DNA from: Callorhinchus milii
Taxonomy: Eukaryota
DNA: 64,000 nt
Assembly: GCF_018977255.1 (NCBI RefSeq)
Contig: NW_024704743.1
Span: 10,170,001-10,234,000, forward strand
Direction of reading: 5' to 3'
In this document: positions 9,707-46,840 of the stretch, in pieces
Layout of the letters: the number at the start of each line of letters is the position of its first letter
Position numbering within the stretch: position 1 is the first letter of the stretch
Notes under the pieces: generated by a model
Databases searched by the model: none
What the model saw: the letters and a program-made list of their open reading frames with translations, nothing else
What the model was told of the DNA's origin: nothing
Made by a program: the position numbers and the translations under genes

Positions 9707-9732
9707 CTCAAAAAACATATAGCAATTGAGTA

Positions 9733-9999
9733 TAATATATAATAATCCTTTCATTTGATATAGCGCCTTATCACATTTTTAAGATGTCTCAAAGCATTCC
9801 ACAGAATATACAGTAAATATACAGAATATACAGTAAAGTGTATATTTTGTGAGCGAAACGCGGCAGCCAATTGCACACAGCGGTGTCCCACAAACAGCCA
9901 TGGACTGAGTGTTCAAATTATATTTTATTTATTTTTGAAGGGTTTATTACTCTTGGAAAAGTTATCTACCAATTGACTAACAGCTGGTTTCCTACATAC
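9733..9999 (-). mobile_element. SINE family A, 3' half (target of the full-length L2)
   Basis: Breaks at CCTACATAC and continues at 13826. Confidence 0.9.
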
Positions 10000-10109
10000 A
10001 ACAACAACAACAACAAGATTCCATTTATAGAGCACCTTTCACGTCGGGAGGACGTCCCAAAGCGATGGACCCGACCAAAGTCAGGACCCGAGCAGGGGGG
10101 AAATGGTCA

Positions 10110-13100
10110 GGATGAGGGGAGGGAAGGGTGGGGGCGAGGAGGGGGTAGAGAGTCGAGAGGTGAGCTGAAGGCCCGGTCAAAGAGAAAGGTCTTGAGACCG
10201 GCCTTGAAGGAGGAAAGGAAGGAAGCAAAGTGAAGGCACTGGGGGATAGAGTTCCAGAGCCTAGGGGCTGAGAGGCTGAAGGCCCGGCCACCGATGGTAG
10301 GGCGGTTGGGGCGGGGGATGTGGAGCAGACCGGAGCCAGAGGAACGGAGGGTACGGGCAGGTAGGTAGGAGGATAGTAGGTCGGAGAGGTAGGAGGGAGC
10401 AAGGCCGTGAATGGCCTTGTAGGTGAGGATGAGGATCTTGAATTCGATCCTCTGGGGGATGGGGAGCCAGTGGAGGCGAGCGAGGGTGGGAGTGATGTGG
10501 TCCCGAAGCCTGGTGCGGGACAGTACACGAGCTGCAGAGTTCTGAATGACCTGCAGCTTGTGGAGGGAGGTGCCGGGAAGGCCGGCGAGGAGAGAGTTCC
10601 CATAGTCCAGCCTTGAGGTGATAAAGGCGTGGACCAGGTTTCAGCAGCGTGAGGGGTGAGGTAGTGCCGTAGTCTGGCGATATTCCGGAGGTGATGGAAG
10701 GCGGTGCCAGTTGTGGTGCGGATATGAGGAAGAAAGGACAGCTCAGGGTCGAACAGAACCCCGAGGTTCCTGACTGGCTTTGAGAGGTGGAGAGTGCAGC
10801 CTTGGATGCTGATGCTGTCAGCGCCTGAGGTGCGGAGGCGCTGACGTGAGCCAATCAGGAGGGCCTCAGTTTTGCGCACGTTGAGCTGAAGAAAGTTGTC
10901 TCTCGTCCAGGACTCGATGTCGGACAGGCAGGTGTCAGGACATCGGTGGTCGTGGAGTTGAGGGTAGAGGAGGAAAGGTAGAGTTGGGTGTCATCCGCAT
11001 ACATGTGGAAGTTAACCCCATGTCTGCGGATGATGTCACCGAGGGGGAGCATATAGAGGGTGAAGAGGAGGGGACCGAGGACAGAGCCCTGAGGGACACC
11101 GCACGAGACAGTGCGGGGGGTGGAGGAAAAGCCATTTGTGGAAACAAAGTGAAGACGGTGGGAGAGGTACGACCTAAACCACTCAAGGACAAGGCCTTGA
11201 AGGTTGAGGTGGGAGGACAAGCGGTGGAGAAGGATAGCGTGGTCGACCGTATCGAATGCTGCCGATAGGTCGAGGAGGACGAGGAGGCAGAGGGAGCCCT
11301 GGTCGCAGATGGTCAAGATGTCATTGGTGACCTTGACCAGGGCAGTTTCTGTGCTATGGGCAGCACGGAAACCCGACTGAAGGGGTTCGAATAATGAATG
11401 GGTGGAGAGGAAAGAGCGCAGCTGGGAGGCGACAACTCGTTCAAGGACCTTGGACAGGAAGGGGAGGTTGGAGATGGGCCGGTAGCTTGATAGCTGCGAC
11501 GCATCAAGGGAGGGTTTTTTCAAAGTGGGAGTGATGATGGCAGTTTTTAAGGGAATGGGAACAGAGCCAGAGGAGAGGGACAGGTTGATGATGTCTGTGA
11601 TATGTGGGGCAAGGAGGTGGAGCTGAGAGATAAGGAGTGGAGTGGGGATGGGGTACAGGGAACAGGTGGTGGGTTTCAGGGACAGGATGAGTTTAGTGAC
11701 AGAGGGTGGGGAAACGGGTACGAAGGTGTGCAGGGGAGGATGGGTAGGAGTCGGAGTGTGGGAGGGAGGGGTGGGGGGTGGGGGGAAGTTGGAGGGGAGT
11801 GACCGCAGAGCGGATTCCCTTGATTTTGGATTCAAGGAAATCCAGCATCTCCTCGCAGTGAAGGTTGGAGGAGATGACCTGCACGGGGTGGCGGGGGGAC
11901 AGAGGAGTCGGGATGTGGTCGAAAACAGTAGCCTGGGGTTGTTCTTCGCCTCCAGGATTATCCTGGAATAGAAGGACGACTTGGCCGAGGCGAGAGTGGA
12001 GCGGTAGATTTTGAGGAGGTCCAGCCAGATTTGTCGGTGGACCGTTAGGCCAGATTTGAGGCAGGTGCGTTCAGCGGCCAGCACCTGGCTCTTCAGTGAG
12101 CGGAGGTGGGTGGTGAACCAGGGGGAGGAGCGAGAGTAGGAGACAGTACGGGAGGTGATGGGGGCAAGAGTGTCAAGTGTTGAGGAGAGGGTGTTGTGGA
12201 GCAGGGTGAGAGGATAAGAGTGGTCAGTGAGGGTTGAAGGCCAGAGGGCGAGGAGTTCAGTGGACTGCAAGGCAGTGGTTAGAGATTGTGGGGGTAACGT
12301 CTTCCAGGGGTGGTAGAAGATGGTGGTGGGTCTGGTGGAGGTGGGGAGGGGGTGGAGGTGGTGAAGGAGATGAAGTGGTGATCGGAGATGGCCTTGTCGG
12401 TAATGGTGACATCCGAGACACTGAGGCCCCGGGTGATCACCAAATCGAGTGGGTGGCCGTGACTGTGAGTGGCGGAGTTGATGTGGAGGGAGAGGTTGAG
12501 CGAGGAGAGCATGGAAGAGAAGTCCGAGGAGGTGGAGCAGGAGGGGATGAAGTGCAGTGCAGGTTGAAGTCGCCCAGGATGATGAGGCGATCAGAGCAGA
12601 GGCAGAGAGATGTGAGAAGTGTCGAAATATCGGAGATGAAGGTGGGAGAGGTTTTAGGGGCCGGTAGAGGAGGAGGATTTTGAGTGAGAGGAAGGAGGGG
12701 TGGCAGAGGGTGAGGTGCTCGAAAGAGGGGAAAGAGCCAGAGGAGTAGGGGGATAGGGCAAGTGGTGTCCTTGAGATAAGGGCTACACCACCACCACGGC
12801 GGATGTGGTGGGAGGTGTAGCTGCGTGGTGTGGCCTCCGTGAGGGGGAAGGTGTCACCTGGGGTGAGCCAGGTTTCCGTTAAGGCCATGATGTCAACGCT
12901 CTCATCAAGGATGAGATCGTTGATGACCAGGGCCTTGTTACAGAGGGAGCGGACGTTTTGTAGTCCGATGTGGAGGGAGCGGTTGACAGAAGGGTGTGTG
13001 GGGAGGGAGGGGGGTCCAGGTTGTGAGGCAGGGATGGGGGAATGGGGATAAGGGAGGAGAGGTTGGCTCCCCGGGTCTGTGTCCGGGGTGGCTGGCGAGT

Positions 13101-13351
13101 GTGGTGGGGAATGGGGCAGTCGGTGTGGCTGCTGCTGGACAGCCAACGCCGAGTGCCACGGTGAGCCCGGCGGAGGATTCCCAGGCTGGAGCAGAGGGAG
13201 GTTGTGGGAGGGTCAGATGGCGATAGAAGGCGAGAGGGACGGAGGGAGAGGAGGACAGAGCGGGAGAGATGCAGAGGGGGGAGGGTTTGGGGGGAGAGAG
13301 GAGGGGGGAGGGAGGGAGGGGTGAGGGGGCTCGGGTCAGAGCGGTAGCCAT
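10110..13351 (-). pseudogene. L2 ORF (AP endonuclease + reverse transcriptase), frameshifted
   Basis: Stitched from ORFs 12879-13505, 10855-13146, 12279-12512, 11693-11884 and 10025-10879. Start inferred at ACTATGG (13351); both ends approximate. Confidence 0.85.
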
Positions 13352-13636
13352 AGTGCGCACGCGGGGACCGGGTGCGAGCGGTCAGGTGGATGGCATTAGC
13401 CCATAGGCTGGGGCTGGGGCAGCCAACCCAACAGGACCATGGTGGGCCCTGATGCGAGCCCCGGGGGGGCGCAGAGGTTTGTTTTTGTTTTTGTTGTGCG
13501 CGCACACTCCTGAAACTAAACTATGACGTCAGCGGTTCCCCCGCTCCGCCCCCACACTGCCCCCACCCCCCACAGTCGAGCTGAACTCCCTGCTGCCTCG
13601 TGCTTTATTACCTGAGAAGGTAGGCCCAGGCTCCTC
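13352..13636 (-). promoter_or_regulatory. Putative L2 5' UTR / internal promoter
   Basis: CpG-rich; CRE palindrome TGACGTCA (13524-13531), NRF1-like palindrome TGTGCGCGCACA (13495-13506), GC box (13546-13551); lies inside the TSD-bounded insert. Confidence 0.55.
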
Positions 13637-14437
13637 CCTAAAAGCCGGTGGCGGGACACAAAGGGTGGGGTCCATTAGGCTTCCATCACTGACATCACTT
13701 CCTGTGCCCTGTCCATGCACACAAGGAGTCAGCAAGCATCATGATGAGTATTTTTAGTTGTTGCTGAGACTATAGCACATGCAGGGAAGCCTTTTCTCCC
13801 TGCATGCTAGGCCGCTCCCCGCTTCCCTACATACTGCTAGGTCAACATAGGGGTGTGGATTAAGGAAACTTACCCAACATTTTGCCCTGCCCAGGAATCA
13901 AACCCAGGTCCTATATTCATTTTGTTTGATTTTTCAGATGAATATTATTTTAGATGACTATTTCAATTGAACATTCGAAAAGCTGATTAGAGAAATGTTA
14001 ACACATTTAAATAACCATGTGAACATCTGTATAAGCAAATTGCCAATAGGATTTATCTGAGAAACATGCTTTCTGCTGAAGCTGAGGTGGCTGTGAGTCA
14101 CATCGAGACCCTCCATAAGCCACATGGCTCTATGGTTCCATAACTTTGGCCAAGAATGTATAACACATCCCAGTATAGCATGGGCTGCTGATAGCTTGGA
14201 TGTTCTTTGGCTCCACACAGATGTACTTCTACCTTCCAGTACTGATTGTCCACCTTTCTGTGCCTAGCATGCAGGGAGAAAAGGCTTCCCCGCATGTGCT
14301 ATAGTCTCAGCAACAACTAAAAATACTCATCATGATGCTTGCTGACTCCTTGTGTGCATGGACAGGACACAGGAAGTGATGTCAGTGATGGAAGCCTAAT
14401 GGACTCCGCCCTATGTGTCCCGCCACCGGCTTTTAGG
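13637..14437. repeat. 175-bp inverted repeat (arms 13637-13811 and 14263-14437)
   Basis: Direct comparison: 5 mismatches, no indels. Confidence 0.97.
13826..13911 (-). mobile_element. SINE family A, 5' part of the copy starting at 9733
   Basis: CCTACATACTGCTAGG...GGAATCAAACCCAGGTCC is the expected continuation of the family sequence. Confidence 0.88.
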
Positions 14438-14624
14438 TTTTTAGCCATTCTGACTCAATCCCAGAGTACCTCCGCTTCACTCCCTCCTTCCCCAGGCTCA
14501 AGATTCTCACTTTGACATGTGTTGACATCTTTTTCACACATAAAATACAATCAATTCACTTTACAGTATATTCTATGAAGTACTTTAAGATGTCTCTCAA
14601 AGTGTCTTTGGTCAGGTTAGGTTG

Positions 14625-14779
14625 GGGCGAAACGTTAGGCAAGTTTCCTTAATCTCCACACACACACACGTGTCTGTTTACCTAGCAGTAAATAGGAGCC
14701 CAGGTTGTTAGTCGATTGGCAGATCGCTTTCCGGGGGTAATAATCCCTTATAAAAAAATAATTTGTTCACTCAATCATG
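14625..14779 (+). mobile_element. SINE family A central fragment
   Basis: TTAGGCAAGTTTCCTT...GTTGTTAGTCGATTGGCAGATCG. Confidence 0.85.
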
Positions 14780-16302
14780 CCCCACATCCCAACTGCGTGG
14801 CGGCGGCGTGGCCCTCACATCCAGGGCGTCACTTGCCCTATCCCCCTACCTCCACCGGCTCATTCCCTTTTTTCGAACACCTTACCCTCTGCCATCCCAC
14901 CTCTCTCTAAAAATCCTCCTAGTTTACTGCCCCCCCAAAATCCTCCCCCACCTTCATCTCCACCCTCTGCCTCTGCTTCGACTGCCTCATCATCCTAGGC
15001 GACTTCAACCTCCACTTCACACCTCCAGCTCCACCTCCACAGACTTCACCCTCCACCCATGATCACCCGCTCGACCTGGTGATCATCTGGGGCTTCAGTG
15101 TCTCGGATGTCATCATCGCTGACAAGGTCATCTCTGACCACCATTTCATCTCCCTCAACTCTTATATCCCCCTTCTCACTGCCTCCAAACCTACCACCAT
15201 CTTCTACCACCCGTGGAAGAAGATCTCCCCGCAATCCCTCTCCACTGCCCTGGAGTCATTCGAACTACTCCCCCTCTGGCCCAACTCTCGAGCCAACCCA
15301 CTTGCTGCACTCACTCTTCTCCACAGCACCCTCTCCACCACACTTGACGCCCTTGCCTCCCTCACCTCCCGAATTGCCTCCTATTCCCGATTCTCACCCT
15401 GGTTCACCAGCCACCTCCGCTCGCTCAAACGCCAGGTGCGGGCTGCCGAACGCACTTGGCTCAAATTTGGCCTAACGGTCCACCGCCACATCTGCCTGGA
15501 CCTCATCAAAACCTACCGCTCCACTCTCGCCTTGGCCAAATTGTCCTTCTATTCTAGGTTAATCCTGGAGGTGAAGGGCAACCCCAGGCTCCTCCATGAT
15601 CCCTGGACCCCATCCCCACCCCTCTCCTTAAATCCCAGCTCTACCTCCTTGCCCCACGACTCGCCAACATCATCAACCTCTCCCCTATCATCTGGCACTA
15701 TTCCTTCCCCCCTCAAAACAGTCATCGTCACCCGCACCTTGAAGAAACCTTCCCTTGACCCATAACAGCTATCTAGCTACCAGCCCATCTCAAACCTCCC
15801 TTTCCTATCCAAGGTCCTTGAGAGAGCCATTGCCTCCCAGCTTTCCTCTTTCCTCTCCTCCCACTCCCTCCATGAGCCCCTCCAATCAGGTTTCCCATGC
15901 TGCCCACAGCACGGAAACTGCTTTGGTCAAGGTCACAAATGACATCCTGACCATGTGTGACCAGGGCTCCCTCTGCCTCCTCGTCCTCCTCGACCTCTCC
16001 GCTGCCTTTGATACCGTGGACCACTCAATCCTCCTCCACTGCCTCTCCTCCCACCTCAACCTTCAAGGTTCTGTCCTTGACTGGTTCAGGTCCTACCTTT
16101 CACGCTGCACTTTGTTGCAGCAACTGGCTTCTCCTCCAGCCCCTGCACCATTCCTCAGGGCTCTGTCCTCGGTCCCCTCCTCCTCACCTTCTACATGCTC
16201 TCCCTTGGTGATATCACCCGCAGACATGGGGTGAATTTCCACATGTATGCGGATGATACCCAACTCTATCTCTCTGCCACCACCCTCAACTCCAGGACTA
16301 CT
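14780..16302 (+). mobile_element. L2 internal fragment (APE to RT), internally deleted, no 3' tail
   Basis: ORFs 15079-15765 and 15755-16234 are homologous to the L2 ORF ([28 protein letters not shown]). Homology stops just after YADDTQLY. Confidence 0.92.
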
Positions 16303-16537: not shown

Positions 16538-16790
16538 TAAATCAGTTGAGTTTAGGTCTCAGACATCATAATCAGGGTTGTACGGTACTCTGGTCATCTA
16601 TGTTACAGGGCTGGAGCTCAGAAATGAATTTACAAATTGAATGAAAGGATTGACTCACACCCACATTGATGTGACTTATTTGAGTCGAATTCACTGTTCT
16701 GGCTTTGGGTGACAAAGACATTGGGGTTTTGACATGATACAGCCTGCCGATGAGATGGAGGGAAGAGAAGCATTTTGTCTGTGTCCAGTG
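16538..16790 (+). repeat. 253-bp block duplicated at 46240-46492
   Basis: About 22 mismatches by eye, no indels; both copies abut the same SINE tail. Confidence 0.95.
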
Positions 16791-17080
16791 ATTATAATAA
16801 TAAATAATAATCCTTGCATTTGATATAGGGCCTTATTATGTCTTCAAGACGTCTCAAAGTGCTTCACAGAATATACTGTAAAGTGAGTTGATTGTATATT
16901 TTGTGGGCAAAACATGTTAGCCACTGTCCTACAAACAGTCATGGATTGAGTGACCAATTTATTATTATTATTTTTTAAAAGAAATTATTAGCCCTGGAAA
17001 AGGATACTTCCCTACCCAGGAATCAAACCCAGGTCTTTTGCTTGTGAGGCGAGTACTCTAACTACTGAGCTACAGGACTC
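16791..17080 (-). mobile_element. SINE family A with internal deletions
   Basis: Tail to head terminus GCTACAGGACTC. Confidence 0.88.
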
Positions 17081-36291: not shown

Positions 36292-38862
36292 TCCCTGCTC
36301 CATCTCCACAGACTTCTCTTCCCTGCTCTCCTCACTCAACCTCTCCTTACACATAAACTCCCCCACTCACAGTCACGGCCACCCACTCGATTTGGTGATC
36401 ACCCGGGGCCTCAGTGTCTCGGATGTCACTATTACCGACAAGGCCATCTCTGACCACTACTTCATCTCCTTCACCACCTCCACCCCGCTCCCCACCTCCA
36501 CCAGACCCACCACCATCTTCTACCGGCCTTGGAAGAAGTTACCCCCACAATCCCTAACAGATGCCTTGGAGTCCTCTGAACTCCTCTCCCTCTGGCCTTC
36601 AACCCTCACCGACCCCTCTTCTCCTCTCTCCCTCCTCCACAATACCCTCTCCTCCACACTCGATACTCTTGCCCCCATCACTTCCCGCACTGTCTCCTAC
36701 TCCCGCTCCTCCCCCTGGTACACCACCCACCTCCGCTCACTGAAAAGCCAGGTGCGGGCTGCTGAACGCACCTGTGTCAAATCTGGCCTAACGGTCCACC
36801 GACAAATCTGGCTGGACCTCCTCAAAATTTACCTCAGCCAAGTCGTCCTTCTACTCCAGGATAATCCTGGAGGCGAAGAACAACCCCAGGCTACTGTTTT
36901 CCACCACAACCCGACTCCTCCGTCCCCCCCGCCACCCCGCGCAGGTCATCTCCTCCAACCTTCACTGCGAGGAGATGCTGGATTTCCTTGAATCCAAGAT
37001 CAAGGGAATTCGCTCCGCGGTCACTTCCCCTCCAACATCCACCAACCCCCCACCCCCTCACTCCCACACTCCGACTGCTACCCATCCTCCCCTACTCACT
37101 TTTGTACCCGTTTCCCCACCCTCTGTCACCAAACTCATCCTATCCCTAAAACCAACCACCTGCTCCCTTGACCCCATCCCCACTCCACTCCTTATCTCCC
37201 AGCTCCACTTTCTTGCCCCACATATCACCGACATCATAAACCTGTCCCTCTTCTCTGGCTCTATCCCCATTCCCTTAAAAACTGCCACCATCACGCCCAC
37301 CCTGAAAAAACCCTTCCTTGATGCGTCGCAGCTATCAAGCTACCGGCCCATCTCCAACCTCCCCTTTCTCTCCAAGGTCCTGGAAAGAGTTGTCGCCTCC
37401 CAACTGCGCTCTTTCCTTTCCACCCATTCTCTTTTCGAACCCCTTCAGTCAGGTTTCCGTGCTGCCCATAGCACAGAAACTGCCCTGGTCAAGGTCACCA
37501 ATGATATCCTGACCATCTGTGACCAGGGCTCCCTCTGCCTCCTCGTCCTCCTCGACCTATCGGCAGCATTCGATACGGTCGACCACGCTATCCTACTCCA
37601 CCGCTTGTCCTCCCACCTCAACCTTCAAGGCACTGTCCTTGAATGGTTTAGGTCGTACCTTTCTCACCGTCTTCACTTTGTCTCGACGAATGGCTTCTCC
37701 TCCACCCCCCGTACTGTCTCATGTGGTGTCCCTCAGGGCTCTGTCCTCGGTCCCCTCCTCTTCACCCTCTATATGCTCCCCCTTGGTGACATCATCCGCA
37801 GACATGGAGTTAACTTCCACATGTATGCGGATGACACCCAACTCTACCTTTCCTCCTCTACTCTCAACTCCACGACCACCGATGTCCTGACAGCTGCCTG
37901 TCCGACATCGAGTCCTGGACGAGAGACAACTTTCTTCAGCTCAACGTGCGAAAAACCGAGGCCCTCCTGATTGGCTCGCGTCAGCGCCTCCGCACCTCAG
38001 GCGCCGACACCATCAGCATCCAAGGCTGCACTCTCCACCTCTCAAAGCCAGTCAGGAACCTCGGCGTTTTGTTCGACCCTGAGCTGTCCTTTCTCCCTCA
38101 CATCCGCACCACAACTGGCACCGCCTTCCATCACCTCCGGAACATCGCCAGACTACGGCATTACCTCACCCCTCACGTTGCTGAAACCCTGGTCCACGCC
38201 TTTGTCACCTCAAGGCTGGACTATGGGAACTCTCTCCTCGCCGGCCTTCCCGCCACCTCCCTCCACAAGCTGCAGGTCATTCAGAACTCTGCAGCTCGTG
38301 TACTGTCCCGCACCAGGCTTCGGGACCACATCACTCCCACCCTCGCTCGCCTCCACTGGCTCTCCATCCCCCAGAGGATTGATTTCAAGATCCTCATCCT
38401 CACCTACAAGGCCATTCACGGCCTTGCTCCCTCCTACCTCTCCAACCTACTATCCCCCTACCTACCTGCCCGTACCCTCCGTTCCTCCGGCTCCGGTCTG
38501 CTCCACGTCCCCCGCCCCAATTGCCCTACCATCGGTGGTCGGGCCTTCAGCCTCTCAGCCCCGAGGCTCTGGAACTCTATCCCCCAGTGCCTTCGCCTTG
38601 CTTCCTCCCTCTCCTCCTTCAAGGCCGGTCTCAAAACCTTTCTCTTTGACCGAGCCTTCAGCTCCCCTCCCGACTCTCTTCCCCCTTCTCGCTCCCTCCC
38701 TCCCCTCACCCTGACCATTTCCCCCCTCCTCGCTCCCTCCCTCCCCTCACCCTGACCATTTCCCCCCTGCTCGGGTCATGACCCAACTGTGCAGCGCCTT
38801 GGGACGTCCTCCTGACGTGAAAGGCGCTTTATAAATGGAATCTTGTTGTTGTTGTTGTTGTT
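36292..38862 (+). mobile_element. L2 LINE subfamily A, 5'-truncated (end of APE, RT, 3' tail)
   Basis: ORFs 36392-36991, 36975-37970 and 37946-38755 carry RT motifs. Very similar to the 10000-12540 part of the minus copy. (TTG)n tail; possible TSD TTAATAAT (36279-36286 / 38861-38868). Confidence 0.95.
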
Positions 38863-40369: not shown

Positions 40370-41990
40370 TAGTTTCAGACAACATTGAATAGGTACTAGG
40401 TAAATTGTCGGGTCTTAAAACCGATAAATCCCCTGGACCGGATGGCCTGCATCTGAGAGTTTTAAAGGAGGTGGCTACTGAGATAGTGGATGGCATGTCT
40501 ATAATCTTCCAAAAGTCTGTGGATACTGGAAAAGTTCCCATTGATTGGAAGATTGCAAACGTAACTCCACTATTTAAGAAGGGTGGGAGAGAAAATAGGG
40601 AAAACTATAGACCAGTTAGTTTGACGTCAGTTGTAGGGAAAATTCTTGAGTCCTTAATAAAAGACGTAGTTATGGGATACCTGGAGGACCATAAAAAGTC
40701 AACATGGCTTTACAAAAGGGAAGTCATGCTTGACTAACCTTTTAGAATTTTTTGAGGATGTATCCAGCAGGTTGGATAAGAGGGAACCAGTAGATGTGGT
40801 ATATTTGGATTTTAGGAAGGCATTTGACAAGATGCCACACAAAAGGTTGTTACTCAAGATCAAGGCCCACGGGATTAATGGGAAAATATTAACATGGATA
40901 GAAGAGTGGCTATCAGGTAGAAAGCAGAGAGTAGTGATAAACGGATCATTCTTGAATTGGGAGGATGTAACTAGTGGAGTGCCACAAGGATCAGTGCTTG
41001 GGCCTCAGCTATTTACCATTTACATCAATGATCTGGACGAGGACATTGAATGTAATGTGTCTACATTTGCGGATGATACGAAACTAGGTAGCAGAGTGAG
41101 CTCTCAGGATGATGCAAAAAGATTGCAACAAGATATAGATAGGCTCGGGGAGTGTGCAAGTAGGTGGCAGATGGAATTCACTGTTAGCAAGTGTGAAATT
41201 ATTCACCTAGGGAGCAAGAATAAAAGAACAGATTATTTTCTGGAAGGGGAGAAGTTAGATAGTGTTAGTATTCAAAGGGATTTGGGTGTCCTTGTACACC
41301 AGTCCCAAAAAGTTAGTTTGCAGGTGCAGCAAGCAACTAAGAAGACGAACGGCATGTTAGCGTTCATTTCGAAAGGTTTAGAATATAAGAGTAGGGAAGT
41401 CTTGCTGCAACTGTATATGGCCTTGGTGAGACCGCACCGAGAGTATTGTGTGCAGTTTTGGTCTCCTTATTTAAAAAAGAACATACTTGCCCTAGAGGGG
41501 GTGCAGCGTAGATTCACTCGGTTAGTTCCTGGGTTGAGGGGACTGACCTATGAGGATAGGCTGAATAAACTAGGGCTGTATTCTCCAGAGTGCAGAAGAA
41601 TTAGGGGGGATCTTATTGAAACTTATAAGATTCTTAAAGGGCTGGATAAAGTAGACACAGAGGGACTGTTTTCCCTGTTAGGAGAATCTATAACCAGGGG
41701 TCACAGTCTTAAAATTAAGGGTCAGCCTCTTAGAACAGAGTTGAGGAAACATTTCTTCACTCAGAGGGTAGTGAACTTATGGAATTCACTACCCCAGAAG
41801 GCTGTAGAACATTTTCAAGGCTGAGACTGATAGATTCTTGAAAAATAGTGGGATTAGGGGATATGGGGATAGCGCAGGTATTCAGAGTTAGGTGAGAAGA
41901 TCAGCCATGATCTTATTGAATGGCGGAGCAGGCACGAAGGGTCGAATGGCCTACTCCTGCTCCTAATTCTTATATTCTTATGTTCTTATG
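40370..41990 (+). mobile_element. CR1-clade LINE, 5'-truncated; RT nearly intact
   Basis: [64 protein letters not shown]; one frameshift near 40695-40735; CR1 3' end with (TTCTTATG)-type repeats. Confidence 0.97.
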
Positions 41991-46239: not shown

Positions 46240-46492
46240 TAAATCAGTTGAGTTTAGGTCTCAGACATCATGATTAGGGTTGTATGGTACTCTGGTCATC
46301 TACTTCACAGGGTTGGAGCTCAGCAATGAGTTTACAAATTGAATGAAAGGATGGACTCACATACACATTGATGTGACTTATTTGGGTTGAATTCCCTGTT
46401 CTGGCTTTGGGTGACAAAGACTTTGGGGTTCTGATATGACACAGGCTGCCGATGAGATGGAGAGAAGAGAAGCATTTTGTCTGTGTCCAATG
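46240..46492 (+). repeat. Second copy of the 253-bp block
   Basis: See 16538-16790. Confidence 0.95.
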
Positions 46493-46840
46493 ATTATTAT
46501 TAATAGTAAATAATAATTCTTTCATTTGATATAGGGCCTTATTATGTTTTGGGGAATGTCTCAAAGTGCTTCACAGAATATACTGTAAAATGAATTGACC
46601 GTATATTTTGTGAGCAAAATGCAGCAGCCAATTGTGCACAGCAGTGTCCCACCAATAGTCATGGATTGAGTGACCAATTTATTTATTTTTTTTTTGAAGG
46701 AATTATTACCCCCAGAAAAACTGATCCATTGATCGACTAACAACCGGGATCCTACTTACTGCTAAGTAAACAGAGGCATGCGCAGTAAGGAAATTTGCCC
46801 AACATTTCATTCTGCTGGGAATGGAACCCAGGTCTTTCGC
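46493..46840 (-). mobile_element. SINE family A, head truncated
   Basis: Tail, body and B box present. Confidence 0.88.

Follow-up and report, generated by a model that had tools for sequence, protein, structure and literature searches.

Introduction

Inverted duplications that keep the target site duplication (TSD) have been described for L1, a human long interspersed element (LINE), and attributed to resection, self-annealing and synthesis at the reciprocal target end (bioRxiv 10.1101/2024.12.14.628481; PMC11702581). In zebrafish, about 40-50% of ZfL2-1 and ZfL2-2 copies carry extra nucleotides at the 5' end, largely derived from flanking genomic or LINE DNA (PMC4245944, PMC4760211, PMC2666801), and somatic L1 copies in tumours show templated insertions of less than 250 bp, typically taken from within 15 bp, which were explained by pairing of the cDNA (bioRxiv 10.1101/2024.08.27.596794). 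Fold-back templated inverted insertions, mostly of 5-34 bp, also occur at double-strand breaks in yeast (PMC11724301), and the snap-back junctions of R2 mostly copy the cDNA itself (PMC11371274). Here we describe an apparently full-length L2 insertion in a 64,000-nt stretch of the Callorhinchus milii genome (GCF_018977255.1, contig NW_024704743.1, positions 10,170,001 to 10,234,000; hereafter the window, in whose coordinates all positions are given), which carries at its 5' junction an inverted 175-bp copy of neighbouring DNA.

The locus resembles the human L1 cases in that reciprocal-side flank DNA in inverted orientation separates the LINE 5' end from a TSD that was kept, with about 2 nt of homology. 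Those cases are two examples with small hairpins, for L1 in cultured cells and tumours, whereas here the element is an inherited L2, the loop measures about 430 nt and 14 nt of filler are present; large hairpins gave inversions in the human L1 model, whereas here the loop stays unduplicated. With ZfL2-1 and ZfL2-2 the locus shares the L2 clade and flank-derived extra DNA at the 5' junction, but the zebrafish extras comprise several nucleotides and the TSDs peak at 3-5 bp, compared to 189 nt, a template 428-603 bp off and a 9-bp TSD here. As in the tumour insertions, a non-LINE template of less than 250 bp was copied in and a genomic segment duplicated, although templates in the tumours typically come from no farther than 15 bp, compared to 428-603 bp here. 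The likeness to yeast fold-back and R2 snap-back lies in a 3' end that primes on its own strand or on nearby DNA and is then end-joined. The process is of a known type, and what is unusual here is the size of the loop and the inherited L2 copy. Among titles and abstract openings we found no report of an inherited L2 that had captured its flank in inverted orientation over a long loop; subscription papers were mostly outside this search, and Kajikawa 2012 (Gene) and the preprint supplements may contain longer cases.

Results and discussion

A single L2 insertion carries an inverted copy of its flank

The insertion interrupts a short interspersed element (SINE). Other SINE copies align with the left flank through 9999 and with the right flank from 13826, and the two alignments overlap by exactly the 9 nt CCTACATAC (copy 1306-1539). 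Within the 64 kb, on either strand, this 9-mer is found solely at 9991 and 13826, and none of the 10 other inspected SINE copies carries it at the TSD position. The split SINE, the 9-nt overlap and the private CCTACATAC variant thus identify 10000-13825 as one insertion with a true 9-bp TSD, as originally predicted, and support a single LINE insertion of the target-primed reverse transcription (TPRT) type. The accompanying statement that other SINE copies read CCTACTTAC describes the commonest state (4/10), the remainder carrying other variants. In window order, the minus-strand insertion consists of a (TTG)n tail, an open reading frame (ORF) for endonuclease and reverse transcriptase (RT), a leader, the 175-bp piece and the 14-nt filler. 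The (TTG)n 3' tail of the L2 (10000-10017) abuts the TSD, and the extra DNA (13637-13825, 189 nt) fills the interval from the L2 5' end to the 5' TSD.

Sequence comparison reproduced the earlier finding that the reverse complement of 14263-14437 stands at 13637-13811, with 5 mismatches (4 transitions and 1 transversion; 97%), and that 14 nt of filler follow. The inverted match runs one base further (13812/14262), and 449 nt separate the arms. No third copy of the piece exists in the window, the best other BLAST match having E=1.3, and neither copy shows a TSD or terminal repeats beyond CCTA/TAGG. Two of the mismatches are CpG in the outer copy against TpG/CpA in the inner copy; the CpG counts of 4 (outer) and 2 (inner) fit two CpG losses in the inner copy, the presumed direction of change. 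The GG at 13637-13638 may belong to the L2 5' end as well as to the piece, and would then represent a 2-nt microhomology. The anatomy as described is real and is confirmed. The features concerned are the following, with strand and basis:

9731-9999, minus: 3' part of the host SINE, tRNA-headed with an L2-type tail and with the left TSD at its end (BLAST matches of 75-80% with many copies in the window)
9991-9999, plus: left TSD copy CCTACATAC, its 3' end the putative TPRT primer (sequence comparison)
10000-10017, minus: L2 3' tail (TTG)n (sequence; the sister copy near 38861 has a like tail)
10107-13351, minus: broken single ORF with endonuclease and RT, start ATG at 13351 assumed (frames, Pfam)
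13352-13636, minus: L2 5' leader (contig depth, contig ends)
13637-13811, minus: inverted inner copy, presumably captured, of the 175-bp piece (sequence comparison, contig depth and ends)
13812-13825, no strand: 14-nt filler (sequence)
13813-14261, no strand: unduplicated spacer between the inverted arms, 449 nt (sequence comparison)
13826-13834, plus: right TSD copy, whose minus strand would form the 3' overhang at the reciprocal end of the target (sequence comparison)
13826-13841, minus: last 16 nt of the reciprocal end, which can pair with 14263-14275 of its own strand (duplex energy computed)
13835-13912, minus: 5' part of the split SINE (BLAST against window copies)
14263-14437, plus: outer copy, putative template, with the local hairpin 14267-14297 at its start (sequence comparison, folding)
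14449-14516, plus: old LINE 3'-end remnant to the right of the outer copy (aligns to 10258-10176 of the L2 at 10000-13636; 0/300 shuffles as good)

The fold of the whole piece has z=-0.81. A strong local hairpin stands at its start (14267-14297; 13777-13807 in the inner copy), where 13 of 1,681 38-mers fold as well, and the inner variant at 13783 gives a perfect stem (-11.1 vs -8.1 kcal/mol).

The inverted piece is low-copy and lies outside the L2 leader

Outside data came from the contigs of four genome-sized public runs of one study (X1-X4), aligned at 85% likeness to 9720-14262, a stretch that contains the inner copy only; summed contig depth does not equal copy number. Depth in X1 to X4 was 10,486, 8,632, 7,066 and 7,116 in the leader bin 13368-13519, 626-1,055 in bin 13520-13671, and 36, 26, 25 and 22 in bin 13672-13823, which covers the piece; for the unique spacer it was 16, 13.5, 13 and 7.9. 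The drop from thousands to 22-36 across the junction indicates that the piece is neither L2 5' untranslated region (UTR) nor a young repeat. The piece to spacer ratio (approximately 2x) may include spill from SINE contigs and is not counted as proof of two copies. In agreement with the original prediction, the leader 13352-13636 recurs elsewhere, and the piece, at near single-copy depth in 4/4 runs at this likeness, is low-copy, local in origin and outside the leader; in none of the four runs do the contigs place it in the L2 5' UTR or in a multicopy repeat.

These depths bear on the idea that the piece was already in the RNA, whether as L2 5' UTR, through 5' transduction, as a small RNA (U6-type chimera) or because a multicopy element occupies both sites. 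The piece does have the same sense as the L2 and lies directly upstream of it, with promoter-like motifs and the strong local hairpin described above. We nevertheless hold this origin to be very improbable in view of the near single-copy depth and of the only other copy, which lies 449 nt off and has next to it the 3' remnant of an old LINE and not an L2 5' end. No Rfam family matches within the piece at E up to 5 (the best match, E 1.9, lies outside it), and TSDs or terminal repeats are limited to CCTA/TAGG. Families of miniature inverted-repeat transposable elements or other multicopy elements less than 85% alike fall outside the depth test, yet would not explain a pair at 97%.

Contig ends point to two paralogous copies

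Each contig represents a non-branching path in a k=31 graph after simplification (PMC12424806). The 31-mers common to both window copies cover 14292-14366 and 14368-14404, which predicts an end at 14404/13670. The X3 contig, 463 nt from 13942, has an end computed from its length of 14404, exactly at the predicted exit fork. In X2, a 524-nt contig reads the spacer and continues into 13812-13609, where a single letter differs (1-2 predicted), entering by the outer position and leaving by the inner copy; it ends at 13609, 30 nt past 13639, and an X1 contig has the same start and length. The second contig piece is listed for X2 only, the ends in X1, X3 and X4 being calculated from lengths. The ends at 13609 (X2; X1 by length) imply a fork near 13638, at which another locus would join: from that point on the L2 5' end would recur in other copies, without the piece. 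In each run, 2-3 contigs with other letters cross 13575-13576. Spacer 13942-14261 is identical in the X1-X3 contigs, as is 14002-14261 in the X4 contig; alleles differing at 4/176 piece sites should differ at about 7/320 linked spacer sites, and 0 differences were observed. Since the contig ends fit the predicted forks and the spacer shows 0 differences, the simplest reading is that the run genomes hold two paralogous copies of the piece.

Some of the contig data speak against this. In 4/4 runs contigs continue past the fork at 14321, where the filler path should enter, so that, on the two-copy reading, this path would have been removed by graph simplification. Assemblers do remove short low-depth links beside high-copy repeats. 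The filler junction 13812-13826 is absent among the contig rows listed for the four runs, no empty-site joint is found among the 15 of 1,199 joints listed, and the runs contain 0.55-0.62 of the words of 13352-14530, for which an empty-site model gives 0.63; any part of that region is contained in 5/24 listed data rows. Word shares and zero-depth rows were rejected as proof of runs without the L2, because contigs drop variants.

It could be argued that the runs carry another allele, with a single piece joined to the L2 leader and the spacer inverted, and that the two-copy state of the window is derived or a haplotype mosaic. The X2 contig is literally spacer, piece and leader, the filler-side fork is missing in 4/4 runs, X1/X2, X3 and X4 could be three genotypes, and the word shares of 0.55-0.62 would agree. 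Such an allele is improbable, however, given the 0 spacer differences against about 7/320 expected, and the filler junction and the TSD would need a separate origin. In addition, the depth at 13575-13576 without other letters (19.1, 0, 8.7 and 6.8 in X1-X4) does not track such genotypes. A different ancestral state of the allele in the X2 contig, in which the captured piece was longer (204 nt or more), lost weight in view of the predicted forks and the unchanged spacer. The X2 contig fits a flipped spacer as well, opposite to the window, and the k=31 graph cannot separate a flip from a pruned fork. A broader picture, which we rate as unlikely, is that of a natural flip switch combined with a doubled regulatory module: the 176-bp arms would allow inversion of the 449-bp spacer by recombination, with both orientations segregating, and long-loop fold-back capture would be regular in L2 integration in this genome, copying flank motifs before full-length elements.

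An assembly artefact, that is, a fold-back chimera, is the possibility to which we give least weight. Inverted repeats are a known assembly hazard, and the filler junction was not seen in the outside contigs. Against a chimera, the five differences are spread, with 4 transitions and 2 at CpG; an outside contig joins inner-type letters to the leader, and the length of the X3 contig fits a fork between copies.

Two observations concern the spacer. In X4, 14002-14262 has about 0.6 of the expected depth (7.9; contig depth 6.7), at a repeat depth about 0.9 of that of X3, possibly reflecting hemizygosity, a deletion allele or a depth effect. The segment 13976-14127 reaches depths of 186-312 in all four runs, has no repeat partner in the window, and is an unannotated low-copy repeat inside the spacer.

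Proposed fold-back of the resected target end

The piece was probably captured locally, during L2 integration. The course that we favour, and to which we give slightly better than even chances, is a single integration in which the target end, once resected, folded back and used its own strand as template for the piece. In the processing of double-strand breaks, resection of the right-hand end removes the plus strand and exposes the minus strand; TPRT priming on the plus strand at 9999 leaves the right-hand end of the target with a 3' overhang of the minus strand. The L2 endonuclease would nick the plus strand after 9999, RT would copy the full-length RNA, and a second nick 9 nt away would free the right-hand end, to be resected over at least 600 nt with exposure of the minus strand. 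The 3' end of the target would then anneal on its own strand at 14263-14275, gain 14 nt of filler in aborted priming, re-prime at 14262 and copy 175 nt away from the break. The new end and the cDNA end would be joined through about 2 nt of homology (GG/CC) and filled in, leaving an inverted duplication whose arms are 449 nt apart and a TSD that is preserved.

The last 16 nt of the target pair with their own strand at 14263-14275, exactly at the near boundary of the piece, through 13 bp with a 3-nt bulge (-10.7 kcal/mol). This duplex is equalled at 0.11% of minus-strand positions and, within 2 kb, is beaten only by an inverted SINE copy at 14680. The cDNA end at the entry position 14437 gives -5.9 kcal/mol, equalled at 30.7% of positions, which is chance level. 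Fold-back is favoured over a switch of the cDNA because the target end pairs at the near boundary, whereas the cDNA end pairs at chance level.

A template switch of the cDNA end onto genomic DNA was the mechanism originally predicted. Its local capture stands, whereas the switch itself is not favoured, although it stays a live rival. In such a switch, RT or a repair polymerase would move the cDNA 3' end onto the plus strand at 14437, copy 175 nt towards the break and join the target end, on a template that could be duplex, a released single-stranded flap or a transcript fragment; the 13-bp pairing would help the exit, and the product is identical. Pairing of cDNA with nearby DNA was proposed for 22 templated L1 insertions in tumours (bioRxiv 10.1101/2024.08.27.596794), R2 cDNA-primed synthesis on nearby target DNA was inferred, mostly after full-length cDNA (PMC11371274), and template jumping was proposed for the extra nucleotides of ZfL2-2, a zebrafish L2 (PMC4245944, PMC4760211, PMC2666801). 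We find a switch doubtful since it needs as template the plus strand, the one that resection would remove; its entry pairing is at chance, and the distance of 428-603 bp exceeds that typical of the tumour templates.

Fold-back also faces objections. The 16-nt primer length was picked after the match had been noticed, and a looser alignment score gives 36 equal sites in the 64 kb. Direct extension of the duplex would leave out the piece's initial 13 nt and account for only 2/14 filler bases, and the actual restart has a match of 1 nt only and is apart from the duplex by the TSD and filler. Because the product retains the TSD and filler before the restart at 14262, re-priming must be assumed. 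The 13-bp pairing fits the exit of a cDNA switch equally well, and the loop of about 420-450 nt contrasts with the small hairpins of the described L1 inverted duplications.

The fold-back landing site is one arm of the hairpin 14267-14297. The best-scoring local candidate for the origin of the filler is slipped copying of the hairpin arm 14284-14293, with 16/400 shuffled fillers and 42/357 other 176-nt windows scoring equally. A homology-guided switch onto a neighbouring L2 leader finds no support, since 14449-14516 derives from a LINE 3' end and resembles the 5' part no more than by a non-significant match, equalled in 14/300 shuffles.

The locus offers an inherited example, outside mammals and L1, of a LINE remodelling its target end, in which the element is apparently full-length and the intact TSD, the putative template and the putative priming site are still readable. 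It suggests that the target end is resected over long distances when L2 integrates in the germline as well, and that a fold-back spanning several hundred bases can lead to duplication besides inversion. It is a single event, and the frequency of such captures cannot be read from one locus.

Age of the piece and of the L2

The inverted pair differs by 2.9%, or 1.4% per copy. In a three-way comparison with 36294-38861 and 14796-16301, the L2 has 28 changes of its own in 1,257 columns (19 synonymous and 9 nonsynonymous), which would be partly subfamily history and correspond to about 1% of neutral decay. Among the 40 of 344 run variants listed, which are biased to conserved sites, 29 lie inside the ORF and 27 in frame segments (7 synonymous, 20 nonsynonymous). 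Judged from these substitutions, the ages of piece and L2 appear compatible with one old event.

The rough agreement in age also bears on a clean L2 insertion to which the inverted copy was added by later repair of a separate break at the 5' junction. Fold-back templated inversions do occur at yeast breaks without a retroelement (PMC11724301), but here the break would have to coincide precisely with the boundary that separates the L2 5' end (fork at 13638) from an intact TSD. Two such independent events seem to us quite improbable.

Motifs and the fate of the piece

In the outer copy, CAGGAAGTGATGTCA stands at 14370 and a GC box at 14406 on the minus strand; the latter survives in the outer copy only and is lost in the inner one. 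Of the piece motifs, putative ETS and cAMP response element (CRE) sites, CAGGAAGTG has one further occurrence in the window and TGATGTCA seven. The regulatory meaning earlier attached to the duplicated motifs is unsupported, the motifs being short and the GC box lost in the inner copy, and so is the significance given to a long hairpin, which is only potential. Further copies of the piece were not seen in the window or in the contigs of the four runs, and there is thus no sign of spread with daughter elements. The piece is most likely a one-off repair by-product; its sequence gives no sign of function, as would fit a dead-end, single event.

The L2 element and its relatives in the window

On the minus strand, the Pfam domains endonuclease (PF03372, E=1.3e-07) and RT (PF00078, E=1.2e-30) were detected. 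The ORF 10107-13351 falls into nine stop-free frame segments, set by eye, which amounts to at least eight frame changes, several of them at G runs; these may be private to the copy, shared within the lineage or sequencing errors. We take 10000-13636 to be L2 on the strength of the earlier note and of C-terminal and tail motifs.

Contig depth in the leader is high through about 13520-13570, and few copies extend to 13575-13638. The outermost leader (13520-13638) is rare, with a depth of 17-60 at 13575-13578 compared to about 1,200-1,400 at 13512, and contains a GC box, TGACGTCA and a sense-strand AATAAA. It could itself be an old 5' addition common to a few sister copies.

A sister L2 at 36294-38861 (plus strand, 5'-truncated) differs from the L2 at 10000-13636 by 161 substitutions in 2,525 columns, mostly synonymous where polarised, and no obvious TSD was present in the flanks inspected. 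An older plus-strand L2 fragment (14796-16301) directly to the right of a SINE is 74-80% alike to the L2 at 10000-13636 and has an internal gap near 15595. No host Pfam family was found in 100 of the longest among 315 non-repeat window ORFs, which gave two RT matches and one below the cut-off only. A 384-aa open frame at 40670-41821 has an RT domain (PF00078, E=1.9e-24) of another LINE family. The 480-bp pair 16538-17001 / 46240-46719 (85% identity) reaches past the SINE, and is longer and closer than other dispersed pairs.

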